DNA from: an uncultured Bacteroidales bacterium
Lineage (GTDB): Bacteria > Bacteroidota > Bacteroidia > Bacteroidales > UBA932
Direction of reading: 5' to 3'
Length of the DNA stretch: 64,000 nucleotides
Assembly (NCBI GenBank): GCA_905235445.1
Contig: CAJOLJ010000018.1
Span: 9,696 to 73,695 of the forward strand
In this document: positions 3,753 through 22,529 of the stretch, piece by piece
Numbering within the stretch: the stretch's first letter is position 1
How the letters are laid out: the number at the start of each line of letters is the position of its first letter
Notes under the pieces: model-generated
What the model was told of the DNA's origin: nothing
The model's database searches: none
The model's input: only the letters and a program-made list of their open reading frames with translations
Position numbers and translations under genes: made by a program

Positions 3753-3819
3753 CTGTCCCCGGACACCGGAACAATTGCGAGGGGCTTCTTCGTAAATATG
3801 ATAGTTTGGGCAAAATAGC

Positions 3820-3827
3820 TAAATTTG
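3820..3827 (+). promoter_or_regulatory. Bacteroidetes -7 promoter box (TAAATTTG)
   Basis: Matches TAnnTTTG, 27 nt upstream of the ATG at 3854. It lies downstream of the longer-ORF start at 3806 and so argues for the 3854 start. Confidence 0.5.
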
Positions 3828-3853
3828 TACTCGCAACTATCATTACCATCACA

Positions 3854-5866
3854 ATGAAAGCCCTTATCCTCAACTCGGGACTGGGACACCGAATGGGAGT
3901 CCTGACCAGCGAGCACCCCAAGTGCATGACGGAACTTTCCCCGTCCCAGACGGTACTGTCCCGTCAATTGTCTCTGCTGTGCGATGCCGGCATCAAAGAT
4001 GTCATAATGACCACAGGCTACTACGAGGATGTGCTCCGGGAGTATTGTCTCAGCCTGGACCTGCCACTTAGGATTACGTTTGTCCGAAACCCCATTTACG
4101 ACAAGACCAACTATATCTACTCTATCTACTGTGCCAGGGAGTATTTAAGGGACGATGACATCATCCTCATGCACGGGGACCTGGTATTTGAGAACTCCGT
4201 CTTTGATGAGGTGATGCGCTTCGGGGGAAGCTGCATGACAGTAAGTTCCACCCAGTCCCTTCCGCAAAAGGATTTCAAGGCCGTTGTCAAGGACGGCAAA
4301 ATAACCAAGGTCGGGGTGGAGTTTTTCGAGGATGGGGCCGTGGCTGCCCAGCCACTGTATAGGATGGTCCGCTCAGACTGGATGGTCTGGCTGGAGGGGA
4401 TCGTCGAGTACTGTGAACGGGGAGAGGTGAAGTGTTATGCGGAGAATGCACTGAATGAAGTAAGTGACCTTTGTTCTGTCCGTCCTCTGGATGTGGGAGG
4501 CATGCTATGTTCGGAGATAGATACGCCCCAGGACTATTCCGTCGTGAAAGCCACCCTCCAGGAGATAGAGTCCCGCATCGTGTACATGTGTTTCTCGACA
4601 GACATAATCCACAGCGGCCACATCTCCATCATAAGAAAGGCCCAGAGGCTCGGTAAACTCATTATCGGTGTTCTCTCGGATGAGGCGACGGCTTCGTTCA
4701 AGCACTATCCGATGGTCCCTTTCGAGCAGCGTTGTTCCCTTTTCGAGAACATCTCCGGTGTGTACAAGGTGGTCCGTCAGGACACTCTCTCATATAAGGA
4801 CAATATCCGTTCCCTGCATCCATACTATGTCGTCCACGGGGATGACTGGCGGGAAGGTTTCCAGAGACCTGTCCGGGAGGAGGTGTGCTCCGTCCTATCG
4901 GAGTATGGGGGACATCTTGTTGAGTTCCCGTACACCAAGGACGATGCGCTTGACCAGTTGGAGGACCTTTACCGCTCCCGCCTGTCAATGCCGGACTTTC
5001 GCCGTGCGAGACTCTCGAAACTGCTGGCCATGAAGGGGTTGGTTACTGCCATCGAGGCCCACAGCGGCATAACCGGATTGATAGCTGAGAAGACTACCGT
5101 TCTCCAGGATGGGAAGACTTATCAGTTCGATGCCATGTGGCTGTCGAGCCTATGTGATTCGACGGCCAAGGGAAAGCCGGACATTGAACTTGTGGACCTC
5201 AGCAGTCGCCTGCGCACTGTCGACGATATCATGGACGTCACCACGAAACCCATCATTTTCGACGGGGATACCGGCGGACTGCCGGAACATTTCACATACA
5301 CGGTGAGGACACTGGAGCGGCTCGGTGTGTCGATGGTCATCATCGAGGACAAGGTCGGACTGAAGAAGAACTCGCTCTTCGGGACTTCTGTCCCCCAGAC
5401 CCAGGATGACATCGAGCATTTCTGCGAGAAGATACGTGCCGGCAAGCGGGCCCGCAAGTCCCGTGACTTCATGATATGCGCCCGTATCGAGAGCCTCATC
5501 CTCGAAAAGGGCCAGGAAGATGCCATCAGAAGGGCCAGGGCCTATGTCGAGGCCGGTGCCGATGCGATAATGATCCATAGCAGGAAGAAGGAACCGGACG
5601 AGATATTCTCTTTCGTGGAGGAGTTCAGGCTTCAGGATAAAGCCACTCCCATCGCAGTCGTTCCCACATCATTCAATACCGTGACGGAGGATGAGTTCAA
5701 ACGTAGGGGGGTGAATATAGTGATCTATGCAAATCAGCTCACCCGAAGCGGGTTCCCTGCAATGCAGGAAGCGGCGAAGACCATTCTGCGCAACCACAGG
5801 GCTGCCGAGGCAGATGCCATGTGCATGCCCATAAAGGATATCATCACCCTCATTCCCGAGGAGTAG
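3854..5866 (+). CDS. aepX: Tri-domain fusion: LicC/PntC-like nucleotidyltransferase + HxGH cytidylyltransferase-like domain + phosphoenolpyruvate mutase
   Basis: N-terminal MKALILNSGLGHRMG (G-x-G-x-R nucleotidyltransferase loop) spans ~3854-4580. The middle VYMCFSTDIIHSGH (HxGH motif) and VVHGDDW span ~4580-4990. The C-terminal PEP mutase spans ~5010-5866, with DGDTGG and the diagnostic EDK-x5-NS motif (IIEDKVGLKKNSLFG). Confidence 0.85.
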   Translation: MKALILNSGLGHRMGVLTSEHPKCMTELSPSQTVLSRQLSLLCDAGIKDVIMTTGYYEDVLREYCLSLDLPLRITFVRNPIYDKTNYIYSIYCAREYLRDDDIILMHGDLVFENSVFDEVMRFGGSCMTVSSTQSLPQKDFKAVVKDGKITKVGVEFFEDGAVAAQPLYRMVRSDWMVWLEGIVEYCERGEVKCYAENALNEVSDLCSVRPLDVGGMLCSEIDTPQDYSVVKATLQEIESRIVYMCFSTDIIHSGHISIIRKAQRLGKLIIGVLSDEATASFKHYPMVPFEQRCSLFENISGVYKVVRQDTLSYKDNIRSLHPYYVVHGDDWREGFQRPVREEVCSVLSEYGGHLVEFPYTKDDALDQLEDLYRSRLSMPDFRRARLSKLLAMKGLVTAIEAHSGITGLIAEKTTVLQDGKTYQFDAMWLSSLCDSTAKGKPDIELVDLSSRLRTVDDIMDVTTKPIIFDGDTGGLPEHFTYTVRTLERLGVSMVIIEDKVGLKKNSLFGTSVPQTQDDIEHFCEKIRAGKRARKSRDFMICARIESLILEKGQEDAIRRARAYVEAGADAIMIHSRKKEPDEIFSFVEEFRLQDKATPIAVVPTSFNTVTEDEFKRRGVNIVIYANQLTRSGFPAMQEAAKTILRNHRAAEADAMCMPIKDIITLIPEE

Positions 5867-5882
5867 AATATACACTGTCGCC

Positions 5883-7022
5883 ATGATATCGACATCCTCT
5901 TTCATAGACCGTCTCACGGCTCTCGGGGTGGACTTTTTCAGCGGAGTCCCCGACAGTCTGCTCTCTTCACTGAGTGCGTGCATAGTTGACTCTTTCCCGA
6001 AGGACAGGCACATCATTGCCGCAAATGAGGGCGCCGCAACCGCGCTTTGTGCCGGTTACAACCTTTCCACGGGAAGGATCGGGTGCACCTATATGCAGAA
6101 TAGCGGCCTTGGGAATGCCATAAACCCTCTTCTGTCGCTTTGCGACGGGCAGGTGTATGGGATACCGGTGCTGCTCATCATCGGCTGGAGAGGGGAACCG
6201 GGTGTGCATGACGAGCCTCAGCACGCAAAACAGGGAGGGGTCACTCTCTCCCTCCTGGATGCCTGCGAGATACCCCATGAGATACTCTCCACCGGGGAGG
6301 AAGAGGCTCTTGTGCAGGTGGAAAGGGCGGTGGAGTTCATGAAGGAGCAGTCACGTCCATATGCTCTTGTAGTTAGGAAAGGTACTTTCCTGAAGTATGA
6401 ATCACCCCTCCCCGACCCTTCCAGGGGAGATGAGGGCCTTCCCCTTACAAGGGAGGATGCGATAAGGGTGATACTTGAGCATCTTGCCCCATCTGATGCG
6501 GTAGTGTCCACTACCGGGATGGCCAGCCGGGAACTGTTCGAACTGCGTGAGTCAAGGCACGAAGGCCATGGACGGGATTTCCTGACGGTGGGGTCCATGG
6601 GACACGCATCCCAGATCGCGCTGTCCATTTCCCTGCAAAAGCCCCACAGGAGAGTTGTCTGCCTTGACGGGGACGGAGCCGCCATAATGCACATGGGTTC
6701 GCTTGCGATCTCGGGGCAAAACGCACGGGGCAACTTCCTCCATATAGTGCTGAATAACGGGGCGCACGAGTCCGTCGGAGGGCAGCCTACGGTAGGACTT
6801 GACATAGATTTGCCGAAAGTGGCATCGGCTGTCGGATACCCGCAGGTGAAAAGTGTCCGCACCGAAGAGGAACTCTCCTCAGCCCTGGATTTGTGGAGGG
6901 ATGCCCCAGGGGCCTGTTTCCTTGAAGTGAAGGTGCGAAAAGGCCACCGTCCCGATCTTGGAAGGCCCACTGCCACTCCCACCCAGAACAAGCAGTCCTT
7001 CACCGCTTTCCTACAGCAGTAA
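5883..7022 (+). CDS. aepY: Phosphonopyruvate decarboxylase (TPP-dependent)
   Basis: TPP-binding GDGAAIMHMGSL…NNGAHESVGGQ motif and ~380 aa size. It lies directly downstream of the PEP mutase with a 16-nt gap. Confidence 0.85.
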   Translation: MISTSSFIDRLTALGVDFFSGVPDSLLSSLSACIVDSFPKDRHIIAANEGAATALCAGYNLSTGRIGCTYMQNSGLGNAINPLLSLCDGQVYGIPVLLIIGWRGEPGVHDEPQHAKQGGVTLSLLDACEIPHEILSTGEEEALVQVERAVEFMKEQSRPYALVVRKGTFLKYESPLPDPSRGDEGLPLTREDAIRVILEHLAPSDAVVSTTGMASRELFELRESRHEGHGRDFLTVGSMGHASQIALSISLQKPHRRVVCLDGDGAAIMHMGSLAISGQNARGNFLHIVLNNGAHESVGGQPTVGLDIDLPKVASAVGYPQVKSVRTEEELSSALDLWRDAPGACFLEVKVRKGHRPDLGRPTATPTQNKQSFTAFLQQ

Positions 7023-7040
7023 ACCATCCCCTCCCTCACC

Positions 7041-8159
7041 ATGCAAGAGATTCTTTTCGGGATAGACGCTCTCCCTTCCGCCATCGGGCAGTGCCGAAGG
7101 CCCATGCTCGTTTGCGACGGGTCATACAGGTTTCTTGGGACAAGGGATAAGATAGATTCCGCTCTGGGTGAGAAGGCAGGCGGAAGTCCCCTTGTCGTGT
7201 TCTCATCTTTCGCCTCCAATCCCCTCTATGAGGATGTATGCAAAGGAGTGGACCTTTTCCGTCGGGAAGGGTGTGACTGCATCCTCGCCGTAGGGGGAGG
7301 AAGCAGCCTGGATACGGCAAAATGCATAAAGCTTTTCGGGGGGATGGACCCCCGCGGCGGAAACTATCTGACAAGGGAGTGGACCCCGTCGGACGTGAAG
7401 CTCATAGCCATCCCGACAACGGCCGGTACCGGCAGCGAGTCCACACGCTATGCGGTCATTTATTTCGAGGGCAAAAAACAGTCGATTACCCATGAGGGTA
7501 TCATCCCGAATATCGCCATACTCGATGGCGAGGCTCTTCGGACCCTGCCTCCGTACCAGAGGAAGTGCACCCTCCTGGATGCCCTCTGCCAGGGCATCGA
7601 ATCCTGGTGGAGCGTAAACTCCACCCCTGAAAGTGTCGGATACTCCAGGGCGTGCGTCGAAGGGATAATGAGGGACTGGAGAGGGTACATCAATGATGAC
7701 AACGGAGCTTTGTATGACAGGATGATGCTTCATGCCAACTATGGCGGCAGGGCAATCTGCGTCACCCAGACTACCGCTCCCCATGCCTTCAGCTACAAGT
7801 TGACCTCGACCTACGGCCTTCCCCACGGGCATGCCGTGGCCGTGTGCCTGCCTGAAATCTGGGCCTTCATGATAGGAAACATGCAGGGGTGCGTGGACCC
7901 GAGGGGACAGCAGTACCTTTGGGGTGTGTTCTGTGATATCGCATCGGCCCTGGGGGCTGGAAGCCCTTCTGAGGGAGTGGACCTTTTCCGGTCCCTCCTT
8001 GGGGACCTTCACATCGAAAACCCGGTATCCCCGTCCCCAAGGGAGGATATCGAGATGCTCTCGGGCAGTGTAAACCCGCTCCGCCTGTCCAATAACCCTG
8101 TGAGACTTACCAGTGGGGACATGGCGGCAATCTACTCCAAGGTCCTTGGCGTATCCTAG
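7041..8159 (+). CDS. Iron-containing (group III) alcohol dehydrogenase; candidate phosphonoacetaldehyde reductase
   Basis: GGGSSLDTAKCIK nucleotide-binding motif and a metal-ligand His cluster (APHAFSYKLTSTYGLPHGHAVA). It is the third gene of the phosphonate operon with an 18-nt gap. The substrate assignment is inferred from context. Confidence 0.7.
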   Translation: MQEILFGIDALPSAIGQCRRPMLVCDGSYRFLGTRDKIDSALGEKAGGSPLVVFSSFASNPLYEDVCKGVDLFRREGCDCILAVGGGSSLDTAKCIKLFGGMDPRGGNYLTREWTPSDVKLIAIPTTAGTGSESTRYAVIYFEGKKQSITHEGIIPNIAILDGEALRTLPPYQRKCTLLDALCQGIESWWSVNSTPESVGYSRACVEGIMRDWRGYINDDNGALYDRMMLHANYGGRAICVTQTTAPHAFSYKLTSTYGLPHGHAVAVCLPEIWAFMIGNMQGCVDPRGQQYLWGVFCDIASALGAGSPSEGVDLFRSLLGDLHIENPVSPSPREDIEMLSGSVNPLRLSNNPVRLTSGDMAAIYSKVLGVS

Positions 8160-8174
8160 AGTGGACATCCGGAC

Positions 8175-8211
8175 AGAAAAAATCCCGGGGGAGTCCCGGG
8201 ATTGCTTTTTT
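8175..8211. terminator. Bidirectional intrinsic terminator between convergent genes
   Basis: A perfect 9-bp stem AATCCCGGG / CCCGGGATT with loop GGAGT, flanked by an A-run upstream and GCTTTTTT downstream. It sits between the stops at 8159 (+) and 8217 (-). Confidence 0.75.
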
Positions 8212-8216
8212 AGGGG

Positions 8217-10748
8217 TTACTTTGTCTTTATCGTGACCCTGTCTTCCTGAAGGCCGGCGCTTCGGGCAGTCAGGACAGCTTTCCCCTTGTTGGAGGATCC
8301 CCTCAGCACCACGAGGCATTTCCCGTAGAAAGCCTTCCTGTGGCTGTCCTTGAACCTTTCCATCGATATCGGGCTTCCGTTGTCGACCCCCTCTATCCTT
8401 GCCGTTCCCTTCACATCGAACTGCACGTCGTTCTCAGCCCAGGGACAGAGGTTGCCGTCCTTGTCCAGGATTTCGACAGTGACAAAGGACAGGTCCTTCC
8501 CGTCTGCGGATATGACGCTGCGGTCAGGGGTAAGTTTGACCATATAGGGTTCACCGGCTGTGCGGATGGTCTGGGCCGCGACCTCTTTCCCGTCTTTGCG
8601 TGAGACAACCCGGACGCTTCCTGGGAGATACTTCACCCTCCACTGGGCATGCAGGCAGTCCTCGGTCTTGCTCTTGACCCCTGCGGACTGTCCGTTCACG
8701 AAGAGCTCGACCTCATCGGCGTTGTTGTAGTAGCACCACATGTCAATGTCCTGCCCCTCTTCCCAGTTCCAGTGGGGGAAGAGATGGAGTGTCGGCTCAT
8801 CTGTCCATTCGCTTCGGTAAAGCCACCAGGCATCCTTGGGGAACCCGGCAAGGTCCACGACCCCGAAGTAGGAACTCCTTGCAGGCCAAGGGTAGGGAGT
8901 GGGCTCACCGATGTAGTCGAACCCGGTCCAGATGAACTGTCCGCTCACGTAGTCGTTGTCACGGATGATTTTCAGTGTCTGCTCGTGTGTGTTGCCCCAG
9001 GGGACATGGCAGTTGTCGTAAGAGGAGCACGAGTAGGAGTCGTCATGGAAAGGGGCGAGGAAAGAAGTCGGGAATATGTACATGGAGTCGGAAGGCATCC
9101 TGTAATAGCCCCTTGTGGCGAGGGCTGAGTTGCTCTCCGTTATGACGAAGGGCTTGCCTGGATAGTTCTGCGGAACTTTGAGGACATCCTGGTTGTGGTA
9201 GTTGAAACCGATTACGTCCAGGGCTCCGCTTCGGAAAAGATGGTTCCACTTACCCGTCTCGTTGCATCCTGCCGTAATGGGCCTGGAGGGGTCCATTTCC
9301 CTCACGATATCGGCGAGGCGTATGGTAAGGAGTGAGTTGACGCTAAGGGCCTCCTCACCGCCGGCGGGAACCTCCTCGGAAGCGTGTCCGAGGTTCAGTA
9401 TGAGGTTCGCCTCCTCCAGGGACAGTGTGTCGGCATCGGCGCTGCTCCACTGCTCGAGGACCTCGTTCCCGATGCTCCAGATGACAATGCTGGGGTGATT
9501 GCGGTCACGTCTGACAAAGTCCCTGAGGTCCTGCTCGTACCATTTGTCGAAATAGCGGGCGTAGTCGTTGGCCGTCTTTCTGCGTCGCCACATATCGAAA
9601 GATTCATCCATCACCAGGAATCCCATCCTGTCGCAAAGGTCCAGGAGAATGGGGGAGGGGGGATTGTGTGAAGTGCGGATGGCATTGCAGCCCATTCCGC
9701 GCAGTATTTCCAGCTGACGCTCAATCGCCCGCCTTGAAGTTGCGGCCCCCAGGCAGCCGAGGTCGTGGTGCATGCATACACCATTGAGCTTGACCTTCTT
9801 CCCGTTCAGTCGGAACCCGTCAAGGTCGAATGATATGGTCCTTACGCCGAAGGGCGTGAGGTACTTGTCAACTACACTGCCTTCCACGAGGACGGATGTC
9901 TCGAGAGTGTACAGGTACGGGTCGCTGACGGACCACAGGTGAGCGGAGGGTATGGACCCTTCCAGGGAAGCTACGCTTGTCGTACCGCTTCCCAGGACGA
10001 CCTGCCCCTCCATGGTAGTGACTTGCCGTCCTTTGTCATCCAGTATGCTGCACCGGAGGGTGGCATCCACGGGTGAGTCCGAATCGTTTCTCACCGAGAT
10101 CTCGGCGCTCACCGGAGCATCGCCATTCCCGTCCAACTTATCAGCCCTTACGAAGGTCCCGTCCCGCACCACATGCTGGCAGGCGGTCTTTACGAGCCTA
10201 ACGTCTCGGTAGATGCCGCAGCCACTATACCACCTGCTATTGGGTTGGTCCGAATTGTCCACCTTGACGGCAATGACATTCTCCTGACCAAAGCGGATAT
10301 ACGGGGTCAGGTCGTAACCGAAGGAAATGTACCCGTAGGGGCGCATCCCCAGGGACTGCCCGTTTATGAACACTTCGGTCTGCATGTACGCCCCGTCGAA
10401 CTCGACGCTTATCCTTTTCCCCGAGTCGCTTGCAGGTACGTTGAAAGTCTTGCGATACCATCCCAGTCCACCCGGCAGGGCTCCTCCTCCGGTCCCGGAG
10501 GGGTTGTCCTGTGAAAAGTCGCCTTCGATGGCCCAGTCATGGGGAAGTTCAATGTCCCTCCAGGAACTGTCATCGAAGTCAATTGGGGTGGGAGTCCCAC
10601 TCTGGGCGAGGGAGAACTTCCATCCCGAGTCGAAGTCCTCGATTATCCGGGGGTAGGTGTCCTCTCTCTCTTTTGTTCCCGTGCAGGATAGGATGCCTGA
10701 GAGTGTGAAAAAGGCAATGACAAAACAAGTTGTGATTCTGGTGTTCAT
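8217..10748 (-). CDS. Glycoside hydrolase family 2 (beta-galactosidase-like), secreted lipoprotein
   Basis: GH2 signatures: NAIRTSHNPPSP, IVIWSIGNEV, DESFDMW. Internal Met gives MNTRITTCFVIAFFTLSGILSC (signal plus lipobox). A -7 box at 10773..10780 lies downstream of the longer-ORF start at 10871. Confidence 0.85.
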   Translation of the reverse strand: MNTRITTCFVIAFFTLSGILSCTGTKEREDTYPRIIEDFDSGWKFSLAQSGTPTPIDFDDSSWRDIELPHDWAIEGDFSQDNPSGTGGGALPGGLGWYRKTFNVPASDSGKRISVEFDGAYMQTEVFINGQSLGMRPYGYISFGYDLTPYIRFGQENVIAVKVDNSDQPNSRWYSGCGIYRDVRLVKTACQHVVRDGTFVRADKLDGNGDAPVSAEISVRNDSDSPVDATLRCSILDDKGRQVTTMEGQVVLGSGTTSVASLEGSIPSAHLWSVSDPYLYTLETSVLVEGSVVDKYLTPFGVRTISFDLDGFRLNGKKVKLNGVCMHHDLGCLGAATSRRAIERQLEILRGMGCNAIRTSHNPPSPILLDLCDRMGFLVMDESFDMWRRRKTANDYARYFDKWYEQDLRDFVRRDRNHPSIVIWSIGNEVLEQWSSADADTLSLEEANLILNLGHASEEVPAGGEEALSVNSLLTIRLADIVREMDPSRPITAGCNETGKWNHLFRSGALDVIGFNYHNQDVLKVPQNYPGKPFVITESNSALATRGYYRMPSDSMYIFPTSFLAPFHDDSYSCSSYDNCHVPWGNTHEQTLKIIRDNDYVSGQFIWTGFDYIGEPTPYPWPARSSYFGVVDLAGFPKDAWWLYRSEWTDEPTLHLFPHWNWEEGQDIDMWCYYNNADEVELFVNGQSAGVKSKTEDCLHAQWRVKYLPGSVRVVSRKDGKEVAAQTIRTAGEPYMVKLTPDRSVISADGKDLSFVTVEILDKDGNLCPWAENDVQFDVKGTARIEGVDNGSPISMERFKDSHRKAFYGKCLVVLRGSSNKGKAVLTARSAGLQEDRVTIKTK

Positions 10749-10772
10749 GGTGCCGTTTTTTTGTGAGCGTTT

Positions 10773-10780
10773 CAAAGATA
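10773..10780 (-). promoter_or_regulatory. -7 promoter box (TATCTTTG on minus strand)
   Basis: TAnnTTTG match ~25 nt upstream of the GH2 ATG at 10748. Confidence 0.5.
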
Positions 10781-11058
10781 CAAAGAAAGCTTGTATGTTG
10801 TCATTATCGGGTCCTATATTGAAGTACTGAGGAATTCGGCGAATCTTTGTCGTTGCAGTCAAAATTGACAAATACTGCCCGGGCCCCTCTTTGGCTCAGG
10901 CTTTTTCATTTCACGGTGGGTGGCGAAAGTCCCTCAAATCCCTCCCAAGCACCACGTGAGCCCTTTTGAATTTGCCAATATAGAGACAAGCATCTGATTA
11001 TTATCGGGAAAGGCATTCTTTTTTGCGACAATCAATGCTTTTTTGGACAGGAAAGCAT

Positions 11059-11066
11059 TATATTTG
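11059..11066 (+). promoter_or_regulatory. -7 promoter box (TATATTTG)
   Basis: TAnnTTTG match ending 7 nt before the ATG at 11073. This implies a leaderless or near-leaderless iorA mRNA and excludes the 11043 start. Confidence 0.45.
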
Positions 11067-11072
11067 CTCCCT

Positions 11073-12710
11073 ATGAAAGACAAAAGACTACTCCTTGGCG
11101 ATGAGGCCATCGCCCTCGGTGCCCGGGACAGCGGACTTTCCGGTGTATATGCATATCCCGGTACCCCTTCCACGGAAATCACCGAGTTCATCCAGAACGA
11201 TCCCCTTTGCATACAGAGGGGTATACATTCCCGTTGGTGCACGAATGAGAAGACAGCCATGGAAGCTGCCCTGGGCATGTCCTACGCAGGCAAGCGCGCC
11301 ATGGTCTGCATGAAGCACGTTGGAATGAATGTCTGCGCCGATCCATTCGTGAACAGTGCCCTGACCGGCGTAAACGGAGGACTCATTGTCCTTGTCGCCG
11401 ATGACCCATCCATGCATTCCTCCCAGAACGAGCAGGATTCCAGGTACTACGCATCCTTCGCGATGATCCCGCTGTTCGAACCCTCGAACCAGCAGGAAGC
11501 CTACGATATGGTAGGGGAGGCATTCGCCCTTTCAGAAAAGTATTCCACTCCCGTCATGATAAGGATGGTGACCCGTCTGGCCCACTCCAGGGCTGAGGTC
11601 CTCCCCAGGGAGACCGCCCCCCAGAATGCCCTGTCCCCGTCATCGGATATGGGCTGGGTCCTTCTTCCCGCCATTGCCAGGCGGCAGTATCTGAAACTCA
11701 TAGACAAGCAGCCCGCATTCCTTTCCGCGAGTGAGAGTTCTCCCTGCAATGCGATTCTCCCGGGCCGTGAAGGGGAGGGAAACGAGGGCCTTGGAATTGT
11801 AGCCTGCGGAATTGGCATAAACTACGTAAACGAGGCTTCACCAGCCTGTACGGGCATAGTGAAGGTGTCAAGATATCCGCTCCCTGTCCAGATGATCAGA
11901 GACCTTGGTTCCCGCAGCAGCCGCATCCTCGTGGTCGAGGACGGGCAGCCGTTCGTGGAACATGAGATAAAGGCCATCCTGGGTGCTGATTACCCTGTCC
12001 TGGGAAGGCTCACGGGGGATCTTCCCAGAACCGGTGAACTGAACCCCGACAATGTCGGGGCGGCTGTAGGGCGTCCAAGTTCAAGGGCATTCCCGGATGC
12101 GCTCAATATGGCGCCCCGTCCTCCTCAGCTATGTCCCGGATGCGGACACAGGGACGTCTATGCAGCCCTCAACGAGGTTGCCGCAAGTTATCCGGGTGCA
12201 AGGATATTCGGGGACATCGGGTGTTATACCCTCGGTGCCCTCCCTCCATACAGGTCGCTTTCCAGTTGCGTCGATATGGGTGCATCCATTACCATGGCAA
12301 AGGGTGCTGCCGATGCCGGTGTGTTCCCCGCCATCGCTGTTATCGGTGACTCCACCTTCACCCATTCCGGCATGACCGGACTGCTGGATGCAGTGAACGG
12401 GAATGCGAACATAACTGTCATAATATCGGATAACCTCACTACCGCGATGACCGGTGGGCAGGACTCCGCAGGAACCAGCAAGTACGAAGGCATCTGCATT
12501 GGTCTGGGTGTGGACCCCGCCCATGTGAGGGTGGTGGTTCCCACACCTGCGAAGATACCTGAGATAACCGGGATAATCCGTGAGGAGATACAGTACAAGG
12601 GCGTATCCGTCATCATCCCCCGCAGGGAGTGCATCCAGTCTGCAAGAAGGCATGCTTCCGCAAGGGCCAAGGCAGCCGCAGCGGCAAAGACAAAAGACGG
12701 GGAGAAATAA
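11073..12710 (+). CDS. iorA: Indolepyruvate:ferredoxin oxidoreductase, alpha subunit
   Basis: N-terminus MKDKRLLLGDEAIALGARDSGLSGVYAYPGTPSTEI and the TPP-binding region (CPGCGHRDVY…GDSTFTHSGM) are typical of IorA. It is followed by iorB. Confidence 0.85.
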   Translation: MKDKRLLLGDEAIALGARDSGLSGVYAYPGTPSTEITEFIQNDPLCIQRGIHSRWCTNEKTAMEAALGMSYAGKRAMVCMKHVGMNVCADPFVNSALTGVNGGLIVLVADDPSMHSSQNEQDSRYYASFAMIPLFEPSNQQEAYDMVGEAFALSEKYSTPVMIRMVTRLAHSRAEVLPRETAPQNALSPSSDMGWVLLPAIARRQYLKLIDKQPAFLSASESSPCNAILPGREGEGNEGLGIVACGIGINYVNEASPACTGIVKVSRYPLPVQMIRDLGSRSSRILVVEDGQPFVEHEIKAILGADYPVLGRLTGDLPRTGELNPDNVGAAVGRPSSRAFPDALNMAPRPPQLCPGCGHRDVYAALNEVAASYPGARIFGDIGCYTLGALPPYRSLSSCVDMGASITMAKGAADAGVFPAIAVIGDSTFTHSGMTGLLDAVNGNANITVIISDNLTTAMTGGQDSAGTSKYEGICIGLGVDPAHVRVVVPTPAKIPEITGIIREEIQYKGVSVIIPRRECIQSARRHASARAKAAAAAKTKDGEK

Positions 12711-12722
12711 AGCAGAAAGAAG

Positions 12723-13304
12723 ATGAAAAAAGACATCATACTTTGCGGAGTCGGTGGACAGGGAATCCTGTCCATAGCGACGGTAATCGGCCAGGCGGCC
12801 ACCAGCTCTGGGCTCCATCTCAAGCAGGCTGAAGTCCATGGGATGAGCCAGAGGGGTGGGGACGTGGAAAGTGACCTGCGTCTCTCCACTCAGGAGATAG
12901 CAAGCGACCTTATCGCCGAAGGCGGGGCTGACCTCATAATTTCGATGGAACCGATGGAGGCCCTCAGGTATCTCAGGTTCCTTTCCCCCGACGGTGCAAT
13001 CATTACCGCGTCGGAACCTTTCGTCAATATCCCCAACTACCCCGACAGGGACGCTCTCACGGGAGAGCTGTCCTCCCTTCCGAACGTAACGAAGGGGGAT
13101 ATAGCGGCCCTCGCCCAGTCTGTCGGCAACCCCAAGGGTGCCAACATGGTCCTCCTGGGAATGGCTGCCTCAAGCATAGGGATTGTGTCCGAATCTGACC
13201 TGAGGGATGCGATAGGGAGCATATTCTCCGCCAAGGGAGAGAAGGTGGTGGCCCTGAACCAGGCCTCCTTCGACCTTGGCGTGAAGGTGTCCAAGGGCGA
13301 ATGA
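12723..13304 (+). CDS. iorB: Indolepyruvate oxidoreductase, beta subunit
   Basis: About 190 aa. MKKDIILCGVGGQGILS…EVHGMSQRGG is the gamma-domain signature of 2-oxoacid:ferredoxin oxidoreductases. It lies immediately after iorA. Confidence 0.85.
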   Translation: MKKDIILCGVGGQGILSIATVIGQAATSSGLHLKQAEVHGMSQRGGDVESDLRLSTQEIASDLIAEGGADLIISMEPMEALRYLRFLSPDGAIITASEPFVNIPNYPDRDALTGELSSLPNVTKGDIAALAQSVGNPKGANMVLLGMAASSIGIVSESDLRDAIGSIFSAKGEKVVALNQASFDLGVKVSKGE

Positions 13305-13347
13305 TCCCCATTCCATGATAGAAAAACGAACTTATACAATAAAGACA

Positions 13348-14658
13348 ATGATCTGGAACGAACACAAAGAGACCATGTCCCGTGACGAAATGTCAGCCAT
13401 GCAGGGACGTCGTCTCCACAAAACGGTAGACTACGTTTACCATCATGTCCCATTCTACCGCAAGAAACTTCAGTCCATGGATATCTCTCCCGATGATATC
13501 CAGACGGTGGAGGACATCGTAAAGCTTCCCTACACCACGAAGCAGGACCTGCGCGACAACTATCCCTTCGGGCTGCAGGCCGCACCCAAGAGCGAAATCA
13601 TCCGCATCCATGCGTCCTCAGGCACCACCGGCAATCCCACTATCGTGGGCTATACCCGCAGGGATGTCGAGATCTGGTCCGAGTGCATGGCCCGCTGCCT
13701 GACAGGCTACGGAATGACTTCCGATGATACTTTCTCGGTATCTTACGGCTACGGTCTCTTTACCGGGGGACTGGGCGCCCACTACGGAGTCGAAAGGGTC
13801 GGAGGGGCCGTGGTCCCCGCCTCCACCGGCAATACCGAGAAACACGTGCGCCTTATCCGTGACCTGGGTATCGACGGCATCGCCTGCACCCCCTCATACG
13901 CCCTTCACCTTGCCGAGGTGATGGAGACAATGGGAGTCACGAAAGACCAGATACGCCTTCGCATCGGTGCCTTCGGGGCGGAGCCCTGGACGGAGAACAT
14001 GCGTCATGAGATCGAGTCCCGCCTCGGCCTCAAGGGTTACAACCTCTACGGCCTCAGTGAGATAATGGGACCCTGCGTGAGCTTCGAGTGCGAGTGCCAG
14101 AACGGATCCCACGTAAACGAGGACCATTTCTTCCCGGAAATCATAGATCCCGACACCCTCGAGCCCCTCGGGCGCGGCCACTACGGGGAACTTGTGTTCA
14201 CGACCCTCACCAAAGAGGGCATGCCGCTGCTGCGTTACCGTACCCGTGACCTCTGTTCCCTCGTCGAGGGGGACGACTGCCCCTGCGGAAGGACCACGGT
14301 CAGAATGACCCCGATCATGGGGAGGAGCGATGACATGCTGATTATCCGCGGAATCAACGTGTTCCCCTCCCAGGTGGAGAGCGTCATCCTGGGCATTCCC
14401 GAATGTGCCCCTCGTTACCGCCTCATAGTGGACAGGGTCAACAACCTCGACACACTGACGGTGGAAGTGGAAATGAGGCCCGAGTACTTCATGGGTGCGG
14501 ATACGTTGGAGGCCGTGACCAACTTGGAGAAAGCCGTTGCGGCAAAGCTTCGCAGTGTCCTTTCCATCGGTGCCAATGTCCAGATCCGTCAGCCCGGTTC
14601 CCTCGAGAGGAGCCTCGGCAAGGGCAAGTACGTCATAGACAAGAGGGTCCTGAAATAA
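13348..14658 (+). CDS. paaK: Phenylacetate-CoA ligase (adenylate-forming), paralog 1
   Basis: SSGTTGNPT AMP-binding motif, YNLYGLSE, and a C-terminal DDMLIIRGINVFPSQVE. The start is taken at MIWNEHKETMSRDEM; the longer ORF starts at 13315. Confidence 0.85.
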   Translation: MIWNEHKETMSRDEMSAMQGRRLHKTVDYVYHHVPFYRKKLQSMDISPDDIQTVEDIVKLPYTTKQDLRDNYPFGLQAAPKSEIIRIHASSGTTGNPTIVGYTRRDVEIWSECMARCLTGYGMTSDDTFSVSYGYGLFTGGLGAHYGVERVGGAVVPASTGNTEKHVRLIRDLGIDGIACTPSYALHLAEVMETMGVTKDQIRLRIGAFGAEPWTENMRHEIESRLGLKGYNLYGLSEIMGPCVSFECECQNGSHVNEDHFFPEIIDPDTLEPLGRGHYGELVFTTLTKEGMPLLRYRTRDLCSLVEGDDCPCGRTTVRMTPIMGRSDDMLIIRGINVFPSQVESVILGIPECAPRYRLIVDRVNNLDTLTVEVEMRPEYFMGADTLEAVTNLEKAVAAKLRSVLSIGANVQIRQPGSLERSLGKGKYVIDKRVLK

Positions 14659-14716
14659 TCCCCTTATCCTTTTGCTATACAACAATTATACTGATAATTA
14701 ACTGTTTGCGGATACC

Positions 14717-16027
14717 ATGCCTTATCTGGAATTCTTCAACCCCGTCGAGGAGACCCTCGACCGTGCAGGAATCGAGAGACTTCAATTGGAACGCCTCCAA
14801 AGGACGGTCCGTCACTGCATGAACTCCCCCTTCTACAGGGAGAGGTTCGCAGGGGCAGGACTCACTCCCGATGACATACGGTCCCTTGATGACCTGAAGA
14901 AAATCCCCTTCACCACGAAGCAGGACCTGAGGGATACCTATCCCTTCGGGATGGCTTCGGTTCCACTGGACCGGTGTACCCGCCTACATTCCTCCAGCGG
15001 CACCACCGGTAACCCGACCGTCATCCTTCATACCAAGAGGGACCTCGAGCAGTGGGCGGTCGCCGTGGCCCGCTGCCTGTGGATGGTGGGCTGCCGTCCC
15101 GAGGACGTATTCCAGAACACTTCCGGTTACGGTATGTTCACGGGCGGGCTGGGGTTCCAGTACGGGGCCGAGCTTCTCGGGATGCTGACCATTCCCGCTG
15201 CGGCAGGCAACACCCTTCGCCAGATCAAGTTTTTCACGGACTTCGGAACCACCGTGGTCCATGCGATCCCCTCGTATGCCGCACGCCTGTACGAGGTCAT
15301 GTGCGAGAGGGGAGTGGACCCCAGGAGGGACACGAAGCTTCGCATCATGGCAATCGGTGCGGAGCCCCATAGCGAGGATACGAGGCGAAGGATAGAGGAA
15401 ATGCTGGGAGTGAAAGCCTACAACTCCTTCGGAATGTCCGAGATGTGCGGCCCGGGAGTCGGGTTTGAGTGCAAGGAGCAGAACGGCATGCATATCTGGG
15501 AGGACTATTACATCGTGGAGATAATAGACCCCGACACCCTTGAAAGAGTCCCTGACGGACAGGTGGGGGAACTGGTTCTCACCACGCTCAACCGAGAGGC
15601 GATGCCCCTGCTGCGCTACCGTACCCGTGACCTTACGAGGATTCTTCCGGGGGACTGCCCATGCGGAAGATGCCATAAGAGGATCGACCGGCTGAAGGGA
15701 AGAAGCGATGACATGATAATCCTGAAGGGGGTGAACATATTCCCCATACAGATTGAACAGGTCCTCATGCAGTTCAGGGAACTGGCATCCGACTATCTCA
15801 TCACCCTCGAGACCATTGACGGGAATGACGTCATGACCGTGGAAATCGAACTCTCCGACCGCTTCATAGACGACTATGCCGCCTTCCAGAAACTGGAAAG
15901 GGACATAATCCGCAGTCTTCGCGACGAGATCCTGGTGACCCCGAGGATAAAACTCATTCCCAAGGGAAGCCTCCCCAAGAGCGAGGGCAAGGCCGTCAGG
16001 GTCAGGGACCTTCGCAAACAGTATTGA
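14717..16027 (+). CDS. Phenylacetate-CoA ligase-like, paralog 2
   Basis: Same architecture and motifs as paralog 1 (SSGTTGNPT, YNSFGMSE, DDMIILKGVNIFPIQIE), clearly diverged from it. Confidence 0.85.
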   Translation: MPYLEFFNPVEETLDRAGIERLQLERLQRTVRHCMNSPFYRERFAGAGLTPDDIRSLDDLKKIPFTTKQDLRDTYPFGMASVPLDRCTRLHSSSGTTGNPTVILHTKRDLEQWAVAVARCLWMVGCRPEDVFQNTSGYGMFTGGLGFQYGAELLGMLTIPAAAGNTLRQIKFFTDFGTTVVHAIPSYAARLYEVMCERGVDPRRDTKLRIMAIGAEPHSEDTRRRIEEMLGVKAYNSFGMSEMCGPGVGFECKEQNGMHIWEDYYIVEIIDPDTLERVPDGQVGELVLTTLNREAMPLLRYRTRDLTRILPGDCPCGRCHKRIDRLKGRSDDMIILKGVNIFPIQIEQVLMQFRELASDYLITLETIDGNDVMTVEIELSDRFIDDYAAFQKLERDIIRSLRDEILVTPRIKLIPKGSLPKSEGKAVRVRDLRKQY

Positions 16028-16093
16028 CCCCCTCAGGACAGCCCAACGAACAAAATAGCTCAAAACATAGAACTTTCAATAACTTATACAGAG

Positions 16094-16522
16094 ATGACGG
16101 TACATCAACTTTCAATTTTCATCGAGAACAAGGCCGGTACGCTAGTGAGCGTGCTCAGACTTCTTAAGGATGCCGGTATCCAGCTGATTGCAACGACCAT
16201 CTCGGATACTGCTGAATATGGCATATGCAGGATCATCTGCTCCGAGCCAGAACGTGCATACGAGGTCCTCCGCTCCAACGGGGTGGCCGTGTCCCTGTGC
16301 GAGGTGATAGCGGTGGAGCTGGATGACGTGCCCGGAAGGGCTGCCGATGCCATCGGAATCCTCTCCGAGGAGGGCATCAGCATCTCCTACCTGTACTCAT
16401 TCCTCCTCTCTGGCAAGGGGGTGATTGTCTTCAGGACAGACGACAACCCCAAGACCCTCGACGCCCTCACCCGGTCCGGTATGACTGTCATTGCCGAAAA
16501 GGATCTCTCAAAACTTGTCTGA
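16094..16522 (+). CDS. ACT-domain protein
   Basis: Two ACT-like beta-alpha-beta-beta-alpha-beta halves (LSIFIENKAGTLVSVLRLLKDAGI…; VELDDVPGRAADAIGILSEEGISI). Last gene of the ior/paaK cluster. Confidence 0.75.
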   Translation: MTVHQLSIFIENKAGTLVSVLRLLKDAGIQLIATTISDTAEYGICRIICSEPERAYEVLRSNGVAVSLCEVIAVELDDVPGRAADAIGILSEEGISISYLYSFLLSGKGVIVFRTDDNPKTLDALTRSGMTVIAEKDLSKLV

Positions 16523-16662: not shown

Positions 16663-16670
16663 TAAATTTG
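16663..16670 (+). promoter_or_regulatory. -7 promoter box (TAAATTTG)
   Basis: TAnnTTTG match ~68 nt upstream of the LicD-family ATG at 16738. Confidence 0.45.
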
Positions 16671-16737: not shown

Positions 16738-17661
16738 ATGGCTCAAAGCGCCCCCACATACGATAAGGCCCTTTATGAAAGGATTCTCCTAAGGACCCTC
16801 CGGTCTTTCTCTGCTCTTTGCAAGAGAGAGGGTCTTCGTTACTTCCTGTCCTTCGGCTCGGCGATAGGGGCGGTGCGTCACGGCGGGATGATCCCCTGGG
16901 ACGATGACATTGATGTCTGCATGCCAAGGGAGGATTACGAGAGGTTCCTCTCCCTGGGGGAGTGGTGCACGGTCCGCCTGGACGGCAAGGATGAACGTTT
17001 CCGGATCGTTTCCCTGAGGACCTCCCCCGAGCGGTCGGACGTACCCTTTTCCTATGCCAAATGGACTGACACGACGTCCACCATCTGGGAGCAGAGACGT
17101 TACAGGTGCACCTTTGGCGTCTTCGTGGATGTGTTCCCCCTTGAGAGGGTGTCTTCCGTCCAGGAGGCGCAGACCCTCTGCGAAGAGTACAGGCGCTCCC
17201 TCCTTCAGTACAAGAGGTCTTTCAGGTCCCATTCCCTCTCCGACTGGAAAGAAGCCATCCTGGGGGCGAGGTTCCATGACCTGGGGGCATGGACGATGGA
17301 TGTGTGTGCCCTGAGAGGGCGCAGGGACAAATACCGCAGGGAGTTCATCGCCCTCGATGAGTCCCTTTCCGGGAGAGGAAATGACGGAGAGTACTGCACG
17401 GTACTGGACACCCCCTATTCCATGAAGAAAGTGACCTGCCCCATCCAGTGGTTCAGCGATACCGTAAAGATGCCTTTCGGTGATGTCGAAGCGCCCCTGC
17501 CGGTAGGATATGACAGCATCCTCTCCCAGATTTACGGGGATTATATGACTCCCCCTCCCGAGGAGGGGAGGATATCCGCTCATCATCATTACTTCGTTGA
17601 CCTTCAGAACTGTCTTACCCCCCAGCAAGTGGAAGGGAAATTGAAAGGACGGCAAAAATAG
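16738..17661 (+). CDS. LicD-family phosphotransferase
   Basis: GSAIGAVRHGGMIPWDDDIDVCMPREDYERF is the LicD/fukutin-type nucleotidyltransferase-fold DxD region. About 300 aa. Confidence 0.75.
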   Translation: MAQSAPTYDKALYERILLRTLRSFSALCKREGLRYFLSFGSAIGAVRHGGMIPWDDDIDVCMPREDYERFLSLGEWCTVRLDGKDERFRIVSLRTSPERSDVPFSYAKWTDTTSTIWEQRRYRCTFGVFVDVFPLERVSSVQEAQTLCEEYRRSLLQYKRSFRSHSLSDWKEAILGARFHDLGAWTMDVCALRGRRDKYRREFIALDESLSGRGNDGEYCTVLDTPYSMKKVTCPIQWFSDTVKMPFGDVEAPLPVGYDSILSQIYGDYMTPPPEEGRISAHHHYFVDLQNCLTPQQVEGKLKGRQK

Positions 17662-17673
17662 CTCTATACAAGG

Positions 17674-19218: not shown

Positions 19219-19228
19219 TACTTGCGCC

Positions 19229-19495
19229 ATGGCAAACATAAATGATATCATCCGTGAAATGTTCCCCCGCCTCGAGCCCACCCATCCCCTTGACAGGAAA
19301 GGGAGCACCGGGCGTCTCGTATCCGGGATAGTATTCATCATCCTTGTCGCTGCCATAACTATCTATGTCACCCTCACTCCCGACAGGAATGCCCAGGAGG
19401 ACCCCACCCTAGCGAACGAGGTGGCAGTGGACACTCTTTCTTCGACCCCATCGGCCCTGCCTTCATCGACGGATGGGGCACTTGAACTGAAATAG
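19229..19495 (+). CDS. Small single-pass membrane protein, function unknown
   Basis: Internal Met of ORF 19091..19495, 10 nt after the flippase stop. One hydrophobic helix (LVSGIVFIILVAAITIYVTL) followed by an acidic, Ser/Thr/Pro-rich tail. Confidence 0.45.
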   Translation: MANINDIIREMFPRLEPTHPLDRKGSTGRLVSGIVFIILVAAITIYVTLTPDRNAQEDPTLANEVAVDTLSSTPSALPSSTDGALELK

Positions 19496-19643
19496 TGTAG
19501 CAATTTCTTGTGGGTAAGGGGCTACAGGGGAGGGCTTTCCTAGCCACATATCGTTAGGCTCGATGGCACGGATTATGCTGCTATTGGGTCAGGAACGCTG
19601 TTTAGGCGTTACTGTTTTTTTACGTAAAAGAAAGACCCAACAC

Positions 19644-20069
19644 ATGAAAAATAATAAATCCCTCCCGCTTCATCTGCTTGGCGCAGCCCTTGCCCTTCTT
19701 ACGCTTGCCTCCTTCACCCTCATTCCCACCTCACAGGATGACCCCCACAAGAGAGTCCTCGAGGACGGGACCGTGGTCGTCAATACCACCAAGCTTGGCG
19801 GCAAGTTCTGCGGCTACAGGGACATAACCCCTGTGGAGGTGTATGTGAAGGACGGAGTGGTCAGAAAAGTGGAAGTGCTTGAGAACTATGAGACACCTGC
19901 GTACTTCGAGATGGTGACGGCGGCAGGCCTTCTAGACAAATGGAACGGACTCACTCTCGAGAAAGCCGATAAACTGCAGGTGGATGCAGTGAGCGGTGCG
20001 ACTTTCTCCTCCGAGTCCATAATAGGGAACGTCAAGGCTGCGATTACATATCTTCTTCCCGGGAAATGA
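19644..20069 (+). CDS. FMN-binding domain protein (secreted or membrane-anchored)
   Basis: Start at MKNNKSLPLHLLGAALALLTLASF (signal/anchor). C-terminal VDAVSGATFSSESIIGNV is the FMN_bind covalent-flavinylation-type motif. Confidence 0.7.
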   Translation: MKNNKSLPLHLLGAALALLTLASFTLIPTSQDDPHKRVLEDGTVVVNTTKLGGKFCGYRDITPVEVYVKDGVVRKVEVLENYETPAYFEMVTAAGLLDKWNGLTLEKADKLQVDAVSGATFSSESIIGNVKAAITYLLPGK

Positions 20070-20211
20070 AATAGCCCTCTCTAAGGCTGTCATAGGAGAA
20101 AAGATCTTTTGATGATATCCAAAATGCCCCGTACGGTCAAATAACCGGAAATGCCGCCCCCTTTCAGGAAATCATCATGGGGCAAGTCACGGAAATAATC
20201 CGAAAACTTGT

Positions 20212-21144: not shown

Positions 21145-21175
21145 TTGTTATCTATCATTATATAATGAAACATTT

Positions 21176-22521: not shown

Positions 22522-22529
22522 TGCGGATC

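Follow-up and report, generated by a model that had tools for sequence, protein, structure and literature searches.

A predicted 2-hydroxyethylphosphonate cassette and a LicD-flippase pair in an uncultured Bacteroidales bacterium

What phosphonate does a bacterium make with an operon that ends in an alcohol dehydrogenase gene rather than an aminotransferase gene, and where does the product go? The question is raised by a locus in a 64,000-nucleotide stretch of DNA from an uncultured Bacteroidales bacterium (assembly GCA_905235445.1, contig CAJOLJ010000018.1, positions 9,696 to 73,695), which we call the window. Listing and translation of the open reading frames (ORFs) place three + strand genes at window positions 3854-8159, encoding a phosphoenolpyruvate (PEP) mutase fusion, a phosphonopyruvate decarboxylase (Ppd), and a member of the iron-containing alcohol dehydrogenase (Fe-ADH) family. 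We propose, at a probability of roughly 0.7, that this cassette supplies 2-hydroxyethylphosphonate (HEP) activated with cytidine monophosphate (CMP-HEP), and that a LicD-family transferase and a flippase encoded farther downstream put HEP on a surface glycan, the two groups of genes being transcription units that were once contiguous.

The proposed route is as follows. Unit 1 (3854-8159) would make the donor and unit 2 (16738-19218) would use it. In unit 1, the PEP mutase domain would convert PEP to phosphonopyruvate, and Ppd would decarboxylate phosphonopyruvate to phosphonoacetaldehyde, pulling an unfavourable equilibrium forward. The Fe-ADH-family enzyme, with NAD(P)H, would then reduce phosphonoacetaldehyde to HEP, and a cytidylyltransferase domain of the fusion, most likely the Fom1-like middle domain, would combine HEP with CTP to give CMP-HEP. 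In unit 2, LicD, acting on the cytoplasmic side of the membrane, would move the HEP-phosphonyl group from CMP-HEP onto a hydroxyl of a lipid-linked glycan, the putative acceptor. Export by the Wzx-like flippase would then bring the decorated precursor to the cell surface. The analysis itself shows which genes these are, that their motifs are intact, how they are linked, and where the ADH falls in a tree; the substrate and direction of the ADH, the domain that activates HEP, the donor used by LicD, and the acceptor are inferred from these.

The three-gene cassette and its fusion protein

The cassette and the signals that flank it comprise these features:

3820..3827, + strand: -7 promoter box of the Bacteroidetes type, TAAATTTG, 27 nucleotides before the start codon of the fusion gene
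3854..5866, + strand: triple fusion, 670 residues, with LicC/MobA-like nucleotidyltransferase (NTase), Fom1-like cytidylyltransferase, and PEP mutase domains (Pfam NTP_transf_3, CTP_transf_like, PEP_mutase)
3854..4558, + strand: LicC-like NTase domain of the fusion (residues 1-235; PDB 1jyk (LicC), E = 1.3e-8)
4568..4942, + strand: Fom1-type cytidylyltransferase domain of the fusion (residues 239-363; PDB 5x3d, E = 1.2e-38; HSGH motif)
5012..5860, + strand: PEP mutase domain of the fusion (residues 387-669; TIGR02320; EDKVGLKKNS at nucleotides 5345-5374)
5883..7022, + strand: phosphonopyruvate decarboxylase (Ppd/AepY), 379 residues (TIGR03297, 481 bits against a cut-off of 312.5; TPP_enzyme_N, TPP_enzyme_C)
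7041..8159, + strand: Fe-ADH family enzyme, 372 residues, predicted phosphonoacetaldehyde reductase (Pfam Fe-ADH and ADH_Fe_C)
8181..8203, no strand assigned: bidirectional terminator formed by a G+C-rich hairpin that has T-runs on both strands and lies between ADH and GH2, which are convergent

An earlier note on this DNA had described three tightly spaced genes at 3820-8211, bracketed by a promoter box and a terminator; genes, gaps, box, and hairpin were all located, the gaps being 16 nucleotides between fusion and Ppd and 18 between Ppd and ADH. The consensus of the Bacteroidetes -7 element is TAnnTTTG. Matches to the -7 motif, TANNTTTG, number 27 in the window versus 16.6 expected, a count reached in 1 of 100 shuffles, and many of the copies sit just 5' of gene starts. 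The motif is short and statistically weak; the position of the box at 3820, 27 nucleotides before the ATG, is suggestive of a promoter role, not proof. A counterpart, TAACTTTG, is found at the same relative position in the closest relative of this locus, designated L006. The hairpin has a stem of 9-10 base pairs, six of them G-C, and a folding energy of -19.8 kcal/mol (z = -2.0). The bracket from box to hairpin thus stands as described, but the view of the operon as the full system does not, since it left out the LicD and flippase genes at 16738-19218. The G+C content at the cassette, 51-58%, is similar to that of the surroundings, the source metagenome-assembled genome (MAG) having about 55%; the idea of a horizontally acquired island was dropped, since the cassette shows no compositional anomaly. 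The same contig is present in ENA, Logan, and NCBI assemblies, and the window's PEPCK shares a 90%-identity cluster with one labelled Bacteroidia bacterium.

The ORF of the first gene spans 3806..5866. Its start is almost certainly the ATG at 3854, because the ENA gene call gives 670 residues and the corresponding N-terminus, MKALILNSGLGHR, is conserved in 117 homologs. Pfam matches cover residues 1 to about 235 (NTP_transf_3/NTP_transferase), 250-344 (CTP_transf_like), and 389-645 (PEP_mutase). The EDKxxxxxNS motif separates PEP mutases (Ppm) from their isocitrate-lyase relatives. Both the mutase and this motif had been claimed, and both are confirmed: on TIGR02320, the equivalog model for PEP mutase, the fusion reaches 393 bits against a cut-off of 319.6, and the motif, IIEDKVGLKKNSLFG, occupies residues 496-510, with EDKVGLKKNS at residues 498-507. 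EDKxxxxxNS and DGDTGG are invariant among the fusion homologs (about 120). The second gene likewise encodes the Ppd, dependent on thiamine pyrophosphate, that had been predicted, with TIGR03297 above its cut-off and both TPP enzyme domains. All the domains for which searches had been suggested (PEP mutase, TPP enzyme, Fe-ADH) were found.

The earlier note had also described a cytidylyltransferase of the Fom1 type fused to the mutase. That domain is present; what failed is the picture of a single, N-terminal NTase domain, for a second, LicC-like one precedes it. With the solved Fom1 cytidylyltransferase domain (5x3d) the middle domain shares 52% identity over 124 ungapped residues. Its HSGH lies at residues 253-256 of the fusion, and HxGH is retained in 118 of 121 sequences. 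According to PMC6697681, where Cho 2017 is cited for it, the Fom1 domain produces CMP-HEP. We predict the middle domain to be a Fom1-type cytidylyltransferase for HEP, and of the two it is the most likely activator of HEP. The N-terminal domain is matched only faintly (E = 0.01) by the characterised PntC of T. denticola (6pd1), which is specific for 2-aminoethylphosphonate (AEP). Its signature GLGHR...PK (GxGxR..PK) is kept in all 117 homologs that include the domain; in the window protein, GLGHRMGVLTSEHPK resembles GxG(T/S)Rx4-8PK, with a spacer of 8 residues between Arg and PK and His at the T/S position. Neither NTase domain looks decayed, to judge from signatures conserved over about 120 homologs.

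The two NTase types also stay paired when they are not fused. In a Paludibacteraceae MAG (locus L016), a separate IspD/NTP_transf_3 gene is immediately followed by a cytidylyltransferase-Ppm (CyT-Ppm) gene, Ppd, ADH, and LicD, and the operons of loci L008 and L014 contain a separate homolog of the fusion's N-terminal domain. Triple fusions of this composition (PF12804 + PF01467 + PF13714) were counted by Rice et al. in 2019, who found 42, or 2.8% of Ppm proteins, and assigned them no role (PMC6697681). The literature searched contained no chemical or enzymatic study of members of the triple-fusion clade, and no work on the fusions' role, on CMP-HEP transferases, or on Prevotella/Segatella phosphonates.

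It is tempting to propose that the paired cytidylyltransferase domains, and HEP in place of AEP, may reflect a chemistry that AEP cannot support, in that the free hydroxyl of HEP could accept another phosphonyl group. Teichoic-acid-like chains of poly(hydroxyethylphosphonate), or a second activated group placed on the HEP hydroxyl, with one NTase domain for each step, would be the outcome; we consider this speculative and quite unlikely. A hint for HEP chains is the TagF-like transferase, a member of a polymerising family, encoded right after the cassette of Segatella copri, and such a gene is found in seven metagenome loci.

The third enzyme, a predicted phosphonoacetaldehyde reductase

Which phosphonate the cassette would yield turns on its third gene. 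The earlier note had called its product an Fe-ADH and not a class V aminotransferase, correctly so: the protein scores 122.7 bits on Pfam Fe-ADH (PF00465) and 59.3 bits on ADH_Fe_C, and contains GGGSSLDTAKC and LPHGH. The prediction that it is a phosphonoacetaldehyde reductase, with substrate and direction of reaction taken as those of HEP synthesis, is supported by three independent lines, namely linkage, residues, and phylogeny.

As to linkage, the GTDB genomes were scanned, and the following counts hold among the matches listed. Of nine ADH relatives at least 43% identical to the window enzyme, seven adjoin the triple fusion, Ppd, or both, and the linked ones come from Lachnospiraceae, Oscillospiraceae, Clostridia, and Lentisphaeria. 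Several relatives that are 32-36% identical (hosts Salinivirgaceae, Paludibacteraceae, Sedimentisphaerales, and Defluviitaleaceae) adjoin Ppd and mostly CyT-Ppm as well, and weaker relatives, at 33% identity or less, are mostly unlinked. The ADH clade thus occurs beside PEP mutase and Ppd in several phyla. We also fetched 80 metagenome loci whose fusion proteins are 69-75% identical to that of the window; wherever enough downstream DNA was available, which was the case for 73 triple-fusion loci, Ppd and this ADH were both present, in either order (73/73). The homolog in S. copri, 50% identical, bears the RefSeq name phosphonoacetaldehyde reductase.

The residues can be compared with those of PhpC. 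A 2026 study of the biochemically characterised P. fungorum enzyme gives Lys157, Thr256, Tyr264, and Arg349 as predicted contacts of HEP and Asp191, His195, His260, and His274 as metal ligands, and states that Tyr264, four residues past a ligand His (His+4), is a strictly conserved residue of PhpC enzymes (PMC13576164). These positions were mapped onto the window ADH through two genuine members of TIGR03405, the NCBIfam model for phosphonate Fe-ADHs, namely those of loci L031 (545 bits) and L041 (516 bits). K146, T244, Y252, and R348 of the window ADH align with the four HEP contacts, the alignment of the C-terminal Arg being the least certain, and D180, Q184, H248, and H262 align with the metal ligands. 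Y252 (H248-AFS-Y252) is invariant in the family of the window ADH. The distant ADHs, linked and unlinked, with which residues and tree placement were tested came from the matches listed in the GTDB scan, made with an ADH alignment; the relatives that are 55-68% identical are not among them. All 88 ADHs linked to Ppm or Ppd have the PhpC-type Tyr, whereas only 17 of 68 unlinked ones do, His or Arg being dominant among these.

A neighbour-joining tree (no bootstrap), with L031 and L041 as the PhpC-type references, agrees with the residue counts. The window ADH falls in a clade in which every member has the Tyr and which holds every linked ADH; the clade lies beside that of TIGR03405 and apart from the general Fe-ADHs. 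This was the placement that the earlier note had anticipated, among phosphonate-linked Fe-ADHs and not among ordinary ones.

Two ADHs of the phosphonate clade, in a Bacillota MAG (L010, 6931-7980) and an Acetivibrio MAG (L013, 10001-10945), have no Ppm or Ppd gene within 7-10 kb. Both are 44% identical to the window ADH and retain the Tyr and the Arg. They could serve in salvage or catabolism of HEP, or their cluster could be split.

The LicD-flippase pair and the fate of the activated head group

Downstream of the hairpin lie the features on which the second half of the proposal depends:

8217..16522, no strand assigned: intervening block, outside the phosphonate system, with GH2 (- strand), IorA/IorB, two PaaK-like ligases, and an ACT protein (from Pfam and gene calls)
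16663..16670, + strand: second TAAATTTG box, about 70 nucleotides before the LicD start, the LicD-flippase pair's own candidate promoter
16738..17661, + strand: LicD-family phospho-head-group transferase, 307 residues (Pfam LicD, PF04991, E = 1.8e-38, 133 bits against a cut-off of 22.6)
17674..19218, + strand: predicted Wzx-like flippase of the MOP superfamily, 514 residues, 13 nucleotides after LicD, identified via homologs

The signature of the LicD family is RHxGxIPWDDDxD. In the window protein the motif, GAVRHGGMIPWDDDID, is intact, including WDDDID, and its match to the signature is VRHGGMIPWDDDID. The 514-residue protein gives no Pfam match and a weak full-length match to the MATE model TIGR00797 (E = 0.006); against the window's own MatE protein hhalign returned a probability of 0.14, and a PDB profile search gave chance matches alone. 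Its homologs, 44-61% identical, carry PF01943 (Polysacc_synt) or PF01554 (MatE), and some have the source name O-antigen/teichoic acid export protein. Through the Pfam matches and names of these relatives, the protein is classed as a Wzx-like flippase.

From ADH to LicD is about 8.6 kb in the window, of which the intervening block takes up 8.3 kb. The arrangement in L006, whose fusion, ADH, and LicD are 81%, 68%, and 66% identical to those of the window, is instructive. There the order is fusion, Ppd, ADH, LicD, a 517-residue protein, an 84-residue ORF, and FMN_bind, and then, on the opposite strand, an aminotransferase, MatE, BD-FAE, and UvrD. LicD starts 92 bp past ADH, and the block from GH2 to ACT is absent. 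From LicD onward L006 is collinear with window positions 16738..27604, the exceptions being the 84-residue ORF in L006 and a 310-residue ORF in the window (20212..21144, - strand). The adjacency of cassette and LicD is probably ancestral, because LicD also lies directly after the cassette in many more distant relatives; the arrangement in the window would then be the result of an insertion or rearrangement. The short ADH-LicD spacer of L006 also contains a box, TAATTTTG. The two halves have separate TAnnTTTG boxes, in L006 as well; therefore the halves would be separable without loss of expression.

The neighbours of the cassette were clustered over 87 related loci. The fusion occurs in all 87, Ppd in 75, ADH in 74, and LicD in 39, followed by GT2 glycosyltransferases (25), a DegT-type sugar aminotransferase (16), GT4 (14), epimerases (12), Wzx-like flippases (9), Bac_transf (8), IspD-like proteins (8), and a TagF-like Glyphos_transf protein (7); ATP-grasp ligases also recur. 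Ppd adjoins the fusion gene in 75 of the 87, and the remaining loci are incomplete. In distant relatives the cassette lies within loci of the capsule or O-antigen type that carry GT2, GT4, EpsG, Bac_transf, and Wzx. Capsule, O-antigen, or teichoic-like loci have this composition. The earlier note had expected an activated HEP donor for decoration of the surface, on glycan or lipid. Its biochemical core is well supported, and we favour the glycan because the LicD transferase and the Wzx-like flippase are present.

The LicD-Wzx pairing is kept not just in L006 but also in loci L167 and L169, where flippase homologs (72% and 58% identical) lie near LicD, with a hexapeptide acetyltransferase and a GT1 gene between. 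The supply genes there are different: L167 has an NTase fused to a class I/II aminotransferase, and L169 has epimerases plus Pribosyltran. The L169 module occupies the same chromosomal position as the window cassette, downstream of ABC, M28, TPR, and Lactamase_B genes. It seems that the LicD-flippase pair is a resident module and that its supply genes have been swapped. In L167, from a Bacteroidales-type MAG, the NTP_transferase/class I/II aminotransferase fusion (613 residues; 5385-7226, - strand) is divergent from LicD (7250-8125), and it may be a different, non-phosphonate head-group supply for a like LicD-flippase module.

Several observations weigh against the proposal. The best NCBIfam match of the window ADH is TIGR03405, at 139 bits versus a cut-off of 423.7, and for a relative with a 57% identical ADH (P0025) other Fe-ADH models score slightly above TIGR03405; because its score is so far below the cut-off and other models are marginally higher for that relative, the window ADH is assigned on sequence grounds to a subfamily distinct from TIGR03405. 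Divergence is described for the biosynthetic PhpC, FomC, and DhpG as well (PMC13576164). One canonical metal ligand of the ADH is Gln (Q184) in place of His, which is the arrangement reported for a Zn-dependent sulfoacetaldehyde reductase (PMC13576164), and the metal site is probably Asp/Gln/His/His, of the zinc type. A single substrate would not call for two cytidylyltransferase domains, both of them seemingly active. The window LicD shares 45-46% identity with its counterparts in L167 and L169, as against 33% or less with those beside other HEP cassettes, and no glycosyltransferase gene lies beside LicD in the window. The search for an AEP transaminase covers the 64-kb window of this genome. 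The literature searched contained no assayed enzyme from this ADH clade and no HEP-glycan from Bacteroidota.

The identities of the LicDs open a different use for the pair. CMP-HEP would be made as proposed, and LicD and the flippase would serve another CDP-activated head group, with HEP attached by a transferase encoded elsewhere. It would fit the closeness of the window LicD to LicDs that lie beside non-phosphonate supply genes, the 8.6 kb and separate promoters that divide the two halves, and the presence of a TagF-like transferase rather than LicD next to the S. copri cassette. We think it unlikely all the same, since LicD lies 92 bp past ADH in L006 with the remaining synteny collinear, no other NTase or head-group supply gene was found near LicD in the window, and LicD is the commonest neighbour of the cassette after Ppd and ADH (39 of 87 loci). 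Because the window LicD is nearer to LicDs beside non-phosphonate supply genes, its predicted use of CMP-HEP is drawn from the adjacency in L006 alone.

Another explanation keeps the aldehyde and changes its fate: a class V transaminase encoded at an unlinked site would make AEP the end product, and the ADH would merely buffer or detoxify the aldehyde. AEP is by far the commonest phosphonate, being predicted for 56% of ppm neighbourhoods (PMC8942020), PF12804-type PntC enzymes favour AEP where they have been characterised (PMC6697681), and the part of the genome in view is 64 kb. However, the transaminase normally stays within the cluster in AEP pathways (PMC8942020), and a class V aminotransferase (PF00266) was found neither in the operon nor in the 64-kb window, where the sole aminotransferase found is of class I/II. 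Among the 87 loci there is no recurrent neighbour cluster of class V aminotransferases, nor of radical-SAM, HEPD/MpnS-like, or FomD-like proteins. With the ADH inside the operon in all 73 loci of sufficient length, and with its PhpC-type residues predicted to bind HEP, AEP as the end product seems highly improbable.

HEP might instead go into a phosphonolipid or a free small molecule. The N-terminus of LicD, over residues 19-70 only, matches Mf1, a model of diacylglycerol cholinephosphotransferase (E = 7e-17), and the want of a glycosyltransferase gene beside LicD in the window would suit a non-glycan acceptor. The locus in the window holds no CDP-alcohol phosphatidyltransferase, ATP-grasp ligase, radical-SAM, or tailoring gene of the nonribosomal peptide synthetase type, a Wzx-type flippase gene adjoins LicD, and the cassettes of relatives are embedded in polysaccharide loci; we give this fate of HEP very little credence. 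That the ADH is a catabolic HEP dehydrogenase, feeding phosphonoacetaldehyde to phosphorus scavenging, is barely credible, for although PhpC-type enzymes are reversible and some are found in degradative clusters (PMC13576164), this one shares an operon with the biosynthetic hallmarks PEP mutase and Ppd, and the locus yielded no phnX, phnA, phnY, transporter, or regulator gene. An antibiotic cluster was rejected as well: neither the window nor the set of recurrent neighbours yielded a radical-SAM, FomD hydrolase, or epoxidase gene. The earlier note had likewise stated that no radical-SAM or epoxidase gene follows the operon.

The one aminotransferase near the pair, of class I/II, is encoded with a MatE transporter (21307-22695, - strand), and the arrangement is the same in L006. 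Enzymes of its family, PF00155, have been tied to formation of phosphonoalanine in some clusters (PMC8942020). It is probably unrelated to the cassette, because it lies on the opposite strand and is absent from more distant cassette loci.

Occurrence, known systems, and other genes of the window

The earlier note held that a HEP-type system would be unusual in a gut member of the Bacteroidales. At the level of genes this is not borne out. A search with the fusion protein matched 8000 of 8000 scored database clusters at E <= 1e-20; the 120 best clusters are 71-100% identical, and nearly all have the same three-domain architecture. Names on the relatives include those of Bacteroidales, Bacteroidaceae, and Oscillospiraceae MAGs, and human-gut and fermentation records are among the 80 metagenome loci. 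The cassette abounds in metagenomes of gut and rumen and is common in Bacteroidales and Clostridia there. It is also present in S. copri DSM 18205 (LK433_RS14495-14485, NZ_CP085933.1), where the genes are annotated aepX, aepY, and phosphonoacetaldehyde reductase. The window is thus a new member of a known and already annotated kind, with a chemistry that is predicted for this bacterial group, and for this window the analysis chiefly confirms an annotation-level prediction and reveals no new kind of system. More distantly, more than 20 plasmid records of the insect symbiont Candidatus Stammera capleta (CP144773-CP145604, about 9 kb each) encode a protein of the Ppm/isocitrate-lyase family that is 36-40% identical to the mutase domain.

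The S. copri cassette has the same gene order as that of the window, with identities of 69%, 60%, and 80% for the three fusion domains, 56% for Ppd, and 50% for ADH. Unlike the window cassette, it is part of a capsule-type locus, and the gene after it encodes a TagF-like protein of the CDP-glycerol glycerophosphotransferase family rather than LicD. After that gene (locus L171, 13131-22974) come Wzy, a flippase, two glycosyltransferases, an adenylation-domain protein, an acyl carrier protein (ACP), an AAC(3)-type acetyltransferase, and alanine racemase, so that the genes past the flippase and glycosyltransferases include D-alanylation-like ones. The record, NZ_CP085933.1, is a 167-kb circular 'plasmid'. 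With the S. copri type strain as a culturable carrier, display of a HEP-glycan in the gut would be directly testable.

The fosfomycin pathway of Streptomyces wedmorensis shares with the window a fusion of cytidylyltransferase and Ppm (Fom1), Ppd (Fom2), and an Fe-ADH (FomC), whose product in that pathway, HEP, is then cytidylylated. It differs in having the Fom3 radical-SAM methyltransferase, the FomD hydrolase, and the Fom4 epoxidase, none of which was found in the window, and in lacking the extra LicC-like domain. CMP-HEP, a transient carrier in fosfomycin synthesis, would be the transfer donor here.

The proposed second half has its parallel in Streptococcus pneumoniae, where LicC, LicD1/LicD2, and the flippase TacF decorate a lipid-linked glycan with host-derived phosphocholine. 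In that lic system, as in our proposal, a cytidylyltransferase activates the head group, the LicD family transfers it, and a dedicated MOP flippase exports the product; unlike phosphocholine, the window's head group would be a phosphonate synthesised de novo.

Polysaccharide B of Bacteroides fragilis is zwitterionic, and the amine of AEP is its positive charge. Its aepX-aepY-aepZ genes are like the window genes in their Bacteroidales host, in the cytidylyltransferase-Ppm fusion, in Ppd, and, if our proposal holds, in serving a phosphonate of a surface polysaccharide. The third enzyme of B. fragilis is a class V aminotransferase, which gives AEP, whereas that of the window is a predicted reductase, which would give HEP, with a hydroxyl and no positive charge. 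The phosphonate of polysaccharide B is AEP (PMC11405768). If the proposal is true, HEP in the place of AEP gives a purely anionic, phosphatase-resistant decoration, which could alter recognition by the host, by phages, and by neighbouring microbes.

In complete genomes, 8.5% of ppm neighbourhoods belong to the HEP branch, and Stackebrandtia nassauensis has yielded an exopolysaccharide that bears HEP (Li & Horsman 2022, PMC8942020). The predicted phosphonoglycan clusters of this branch (PMC8942020, PMC6697681) resemble the window in Ppm, Ppd, predicted PhpC-type reductase, HEP as the predicted intermediate, nucleotidyl activation, and association with surface-polysaccharide genes. Unlike the clusters inventoried, the window comes from a host in the Bacteroidia, and its cassette is split from transferase and flippase by about 8.5 kb. 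The cassette raises the questions of why two cytidylyltransferases are kept and how LicD-flippase modules exchange the genes that supply their head groups.

The site adjoining the cassette upstream (2727-3752) is strain-variable. In the window, and also in locus L002, it holds a 341-residue ORF without a Pfam match (+ strand); in L001, an ENA contig otherwise identical to the window, a DDE_Tnp_ISAZ013 transposase gene (6668-7306, - strand) takes its place. In the intervening block (8217-16522), the two PaaK-like AMP-binding ligases are in tandem, and there are an ACT-pair protein and a TAnnTTTG box of the block's own at 11059; the block looks like an operon of the type that converts aryl-pyruvate to arylacetate.

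Farther along, a UvrD-family helicase (25049-27604, - strand) has an RNase_T/DnaQ-like exonuclease domain inserted at residues 470-631, inside the UvrD_C region. In a type II restriction-modification pair (59278-61410, + strand), the gene for a C5 cytosine DNA methylase comes after that for a HindVP-family endonuclease (E = 3e-127). A large locus for pectin and uronate utilisation fills positions 35944-55125 and 62609-63991, with GH28, pectinesterase, GH88, an fn3 protein, SusC/SusD, a DUF4957/DUF5123 protein of 1813 residues, a KduD-like short-chain dehydrogenase/reductase, KduI, and DUF4861, and with altronate/galactarate dehydratase nearby.

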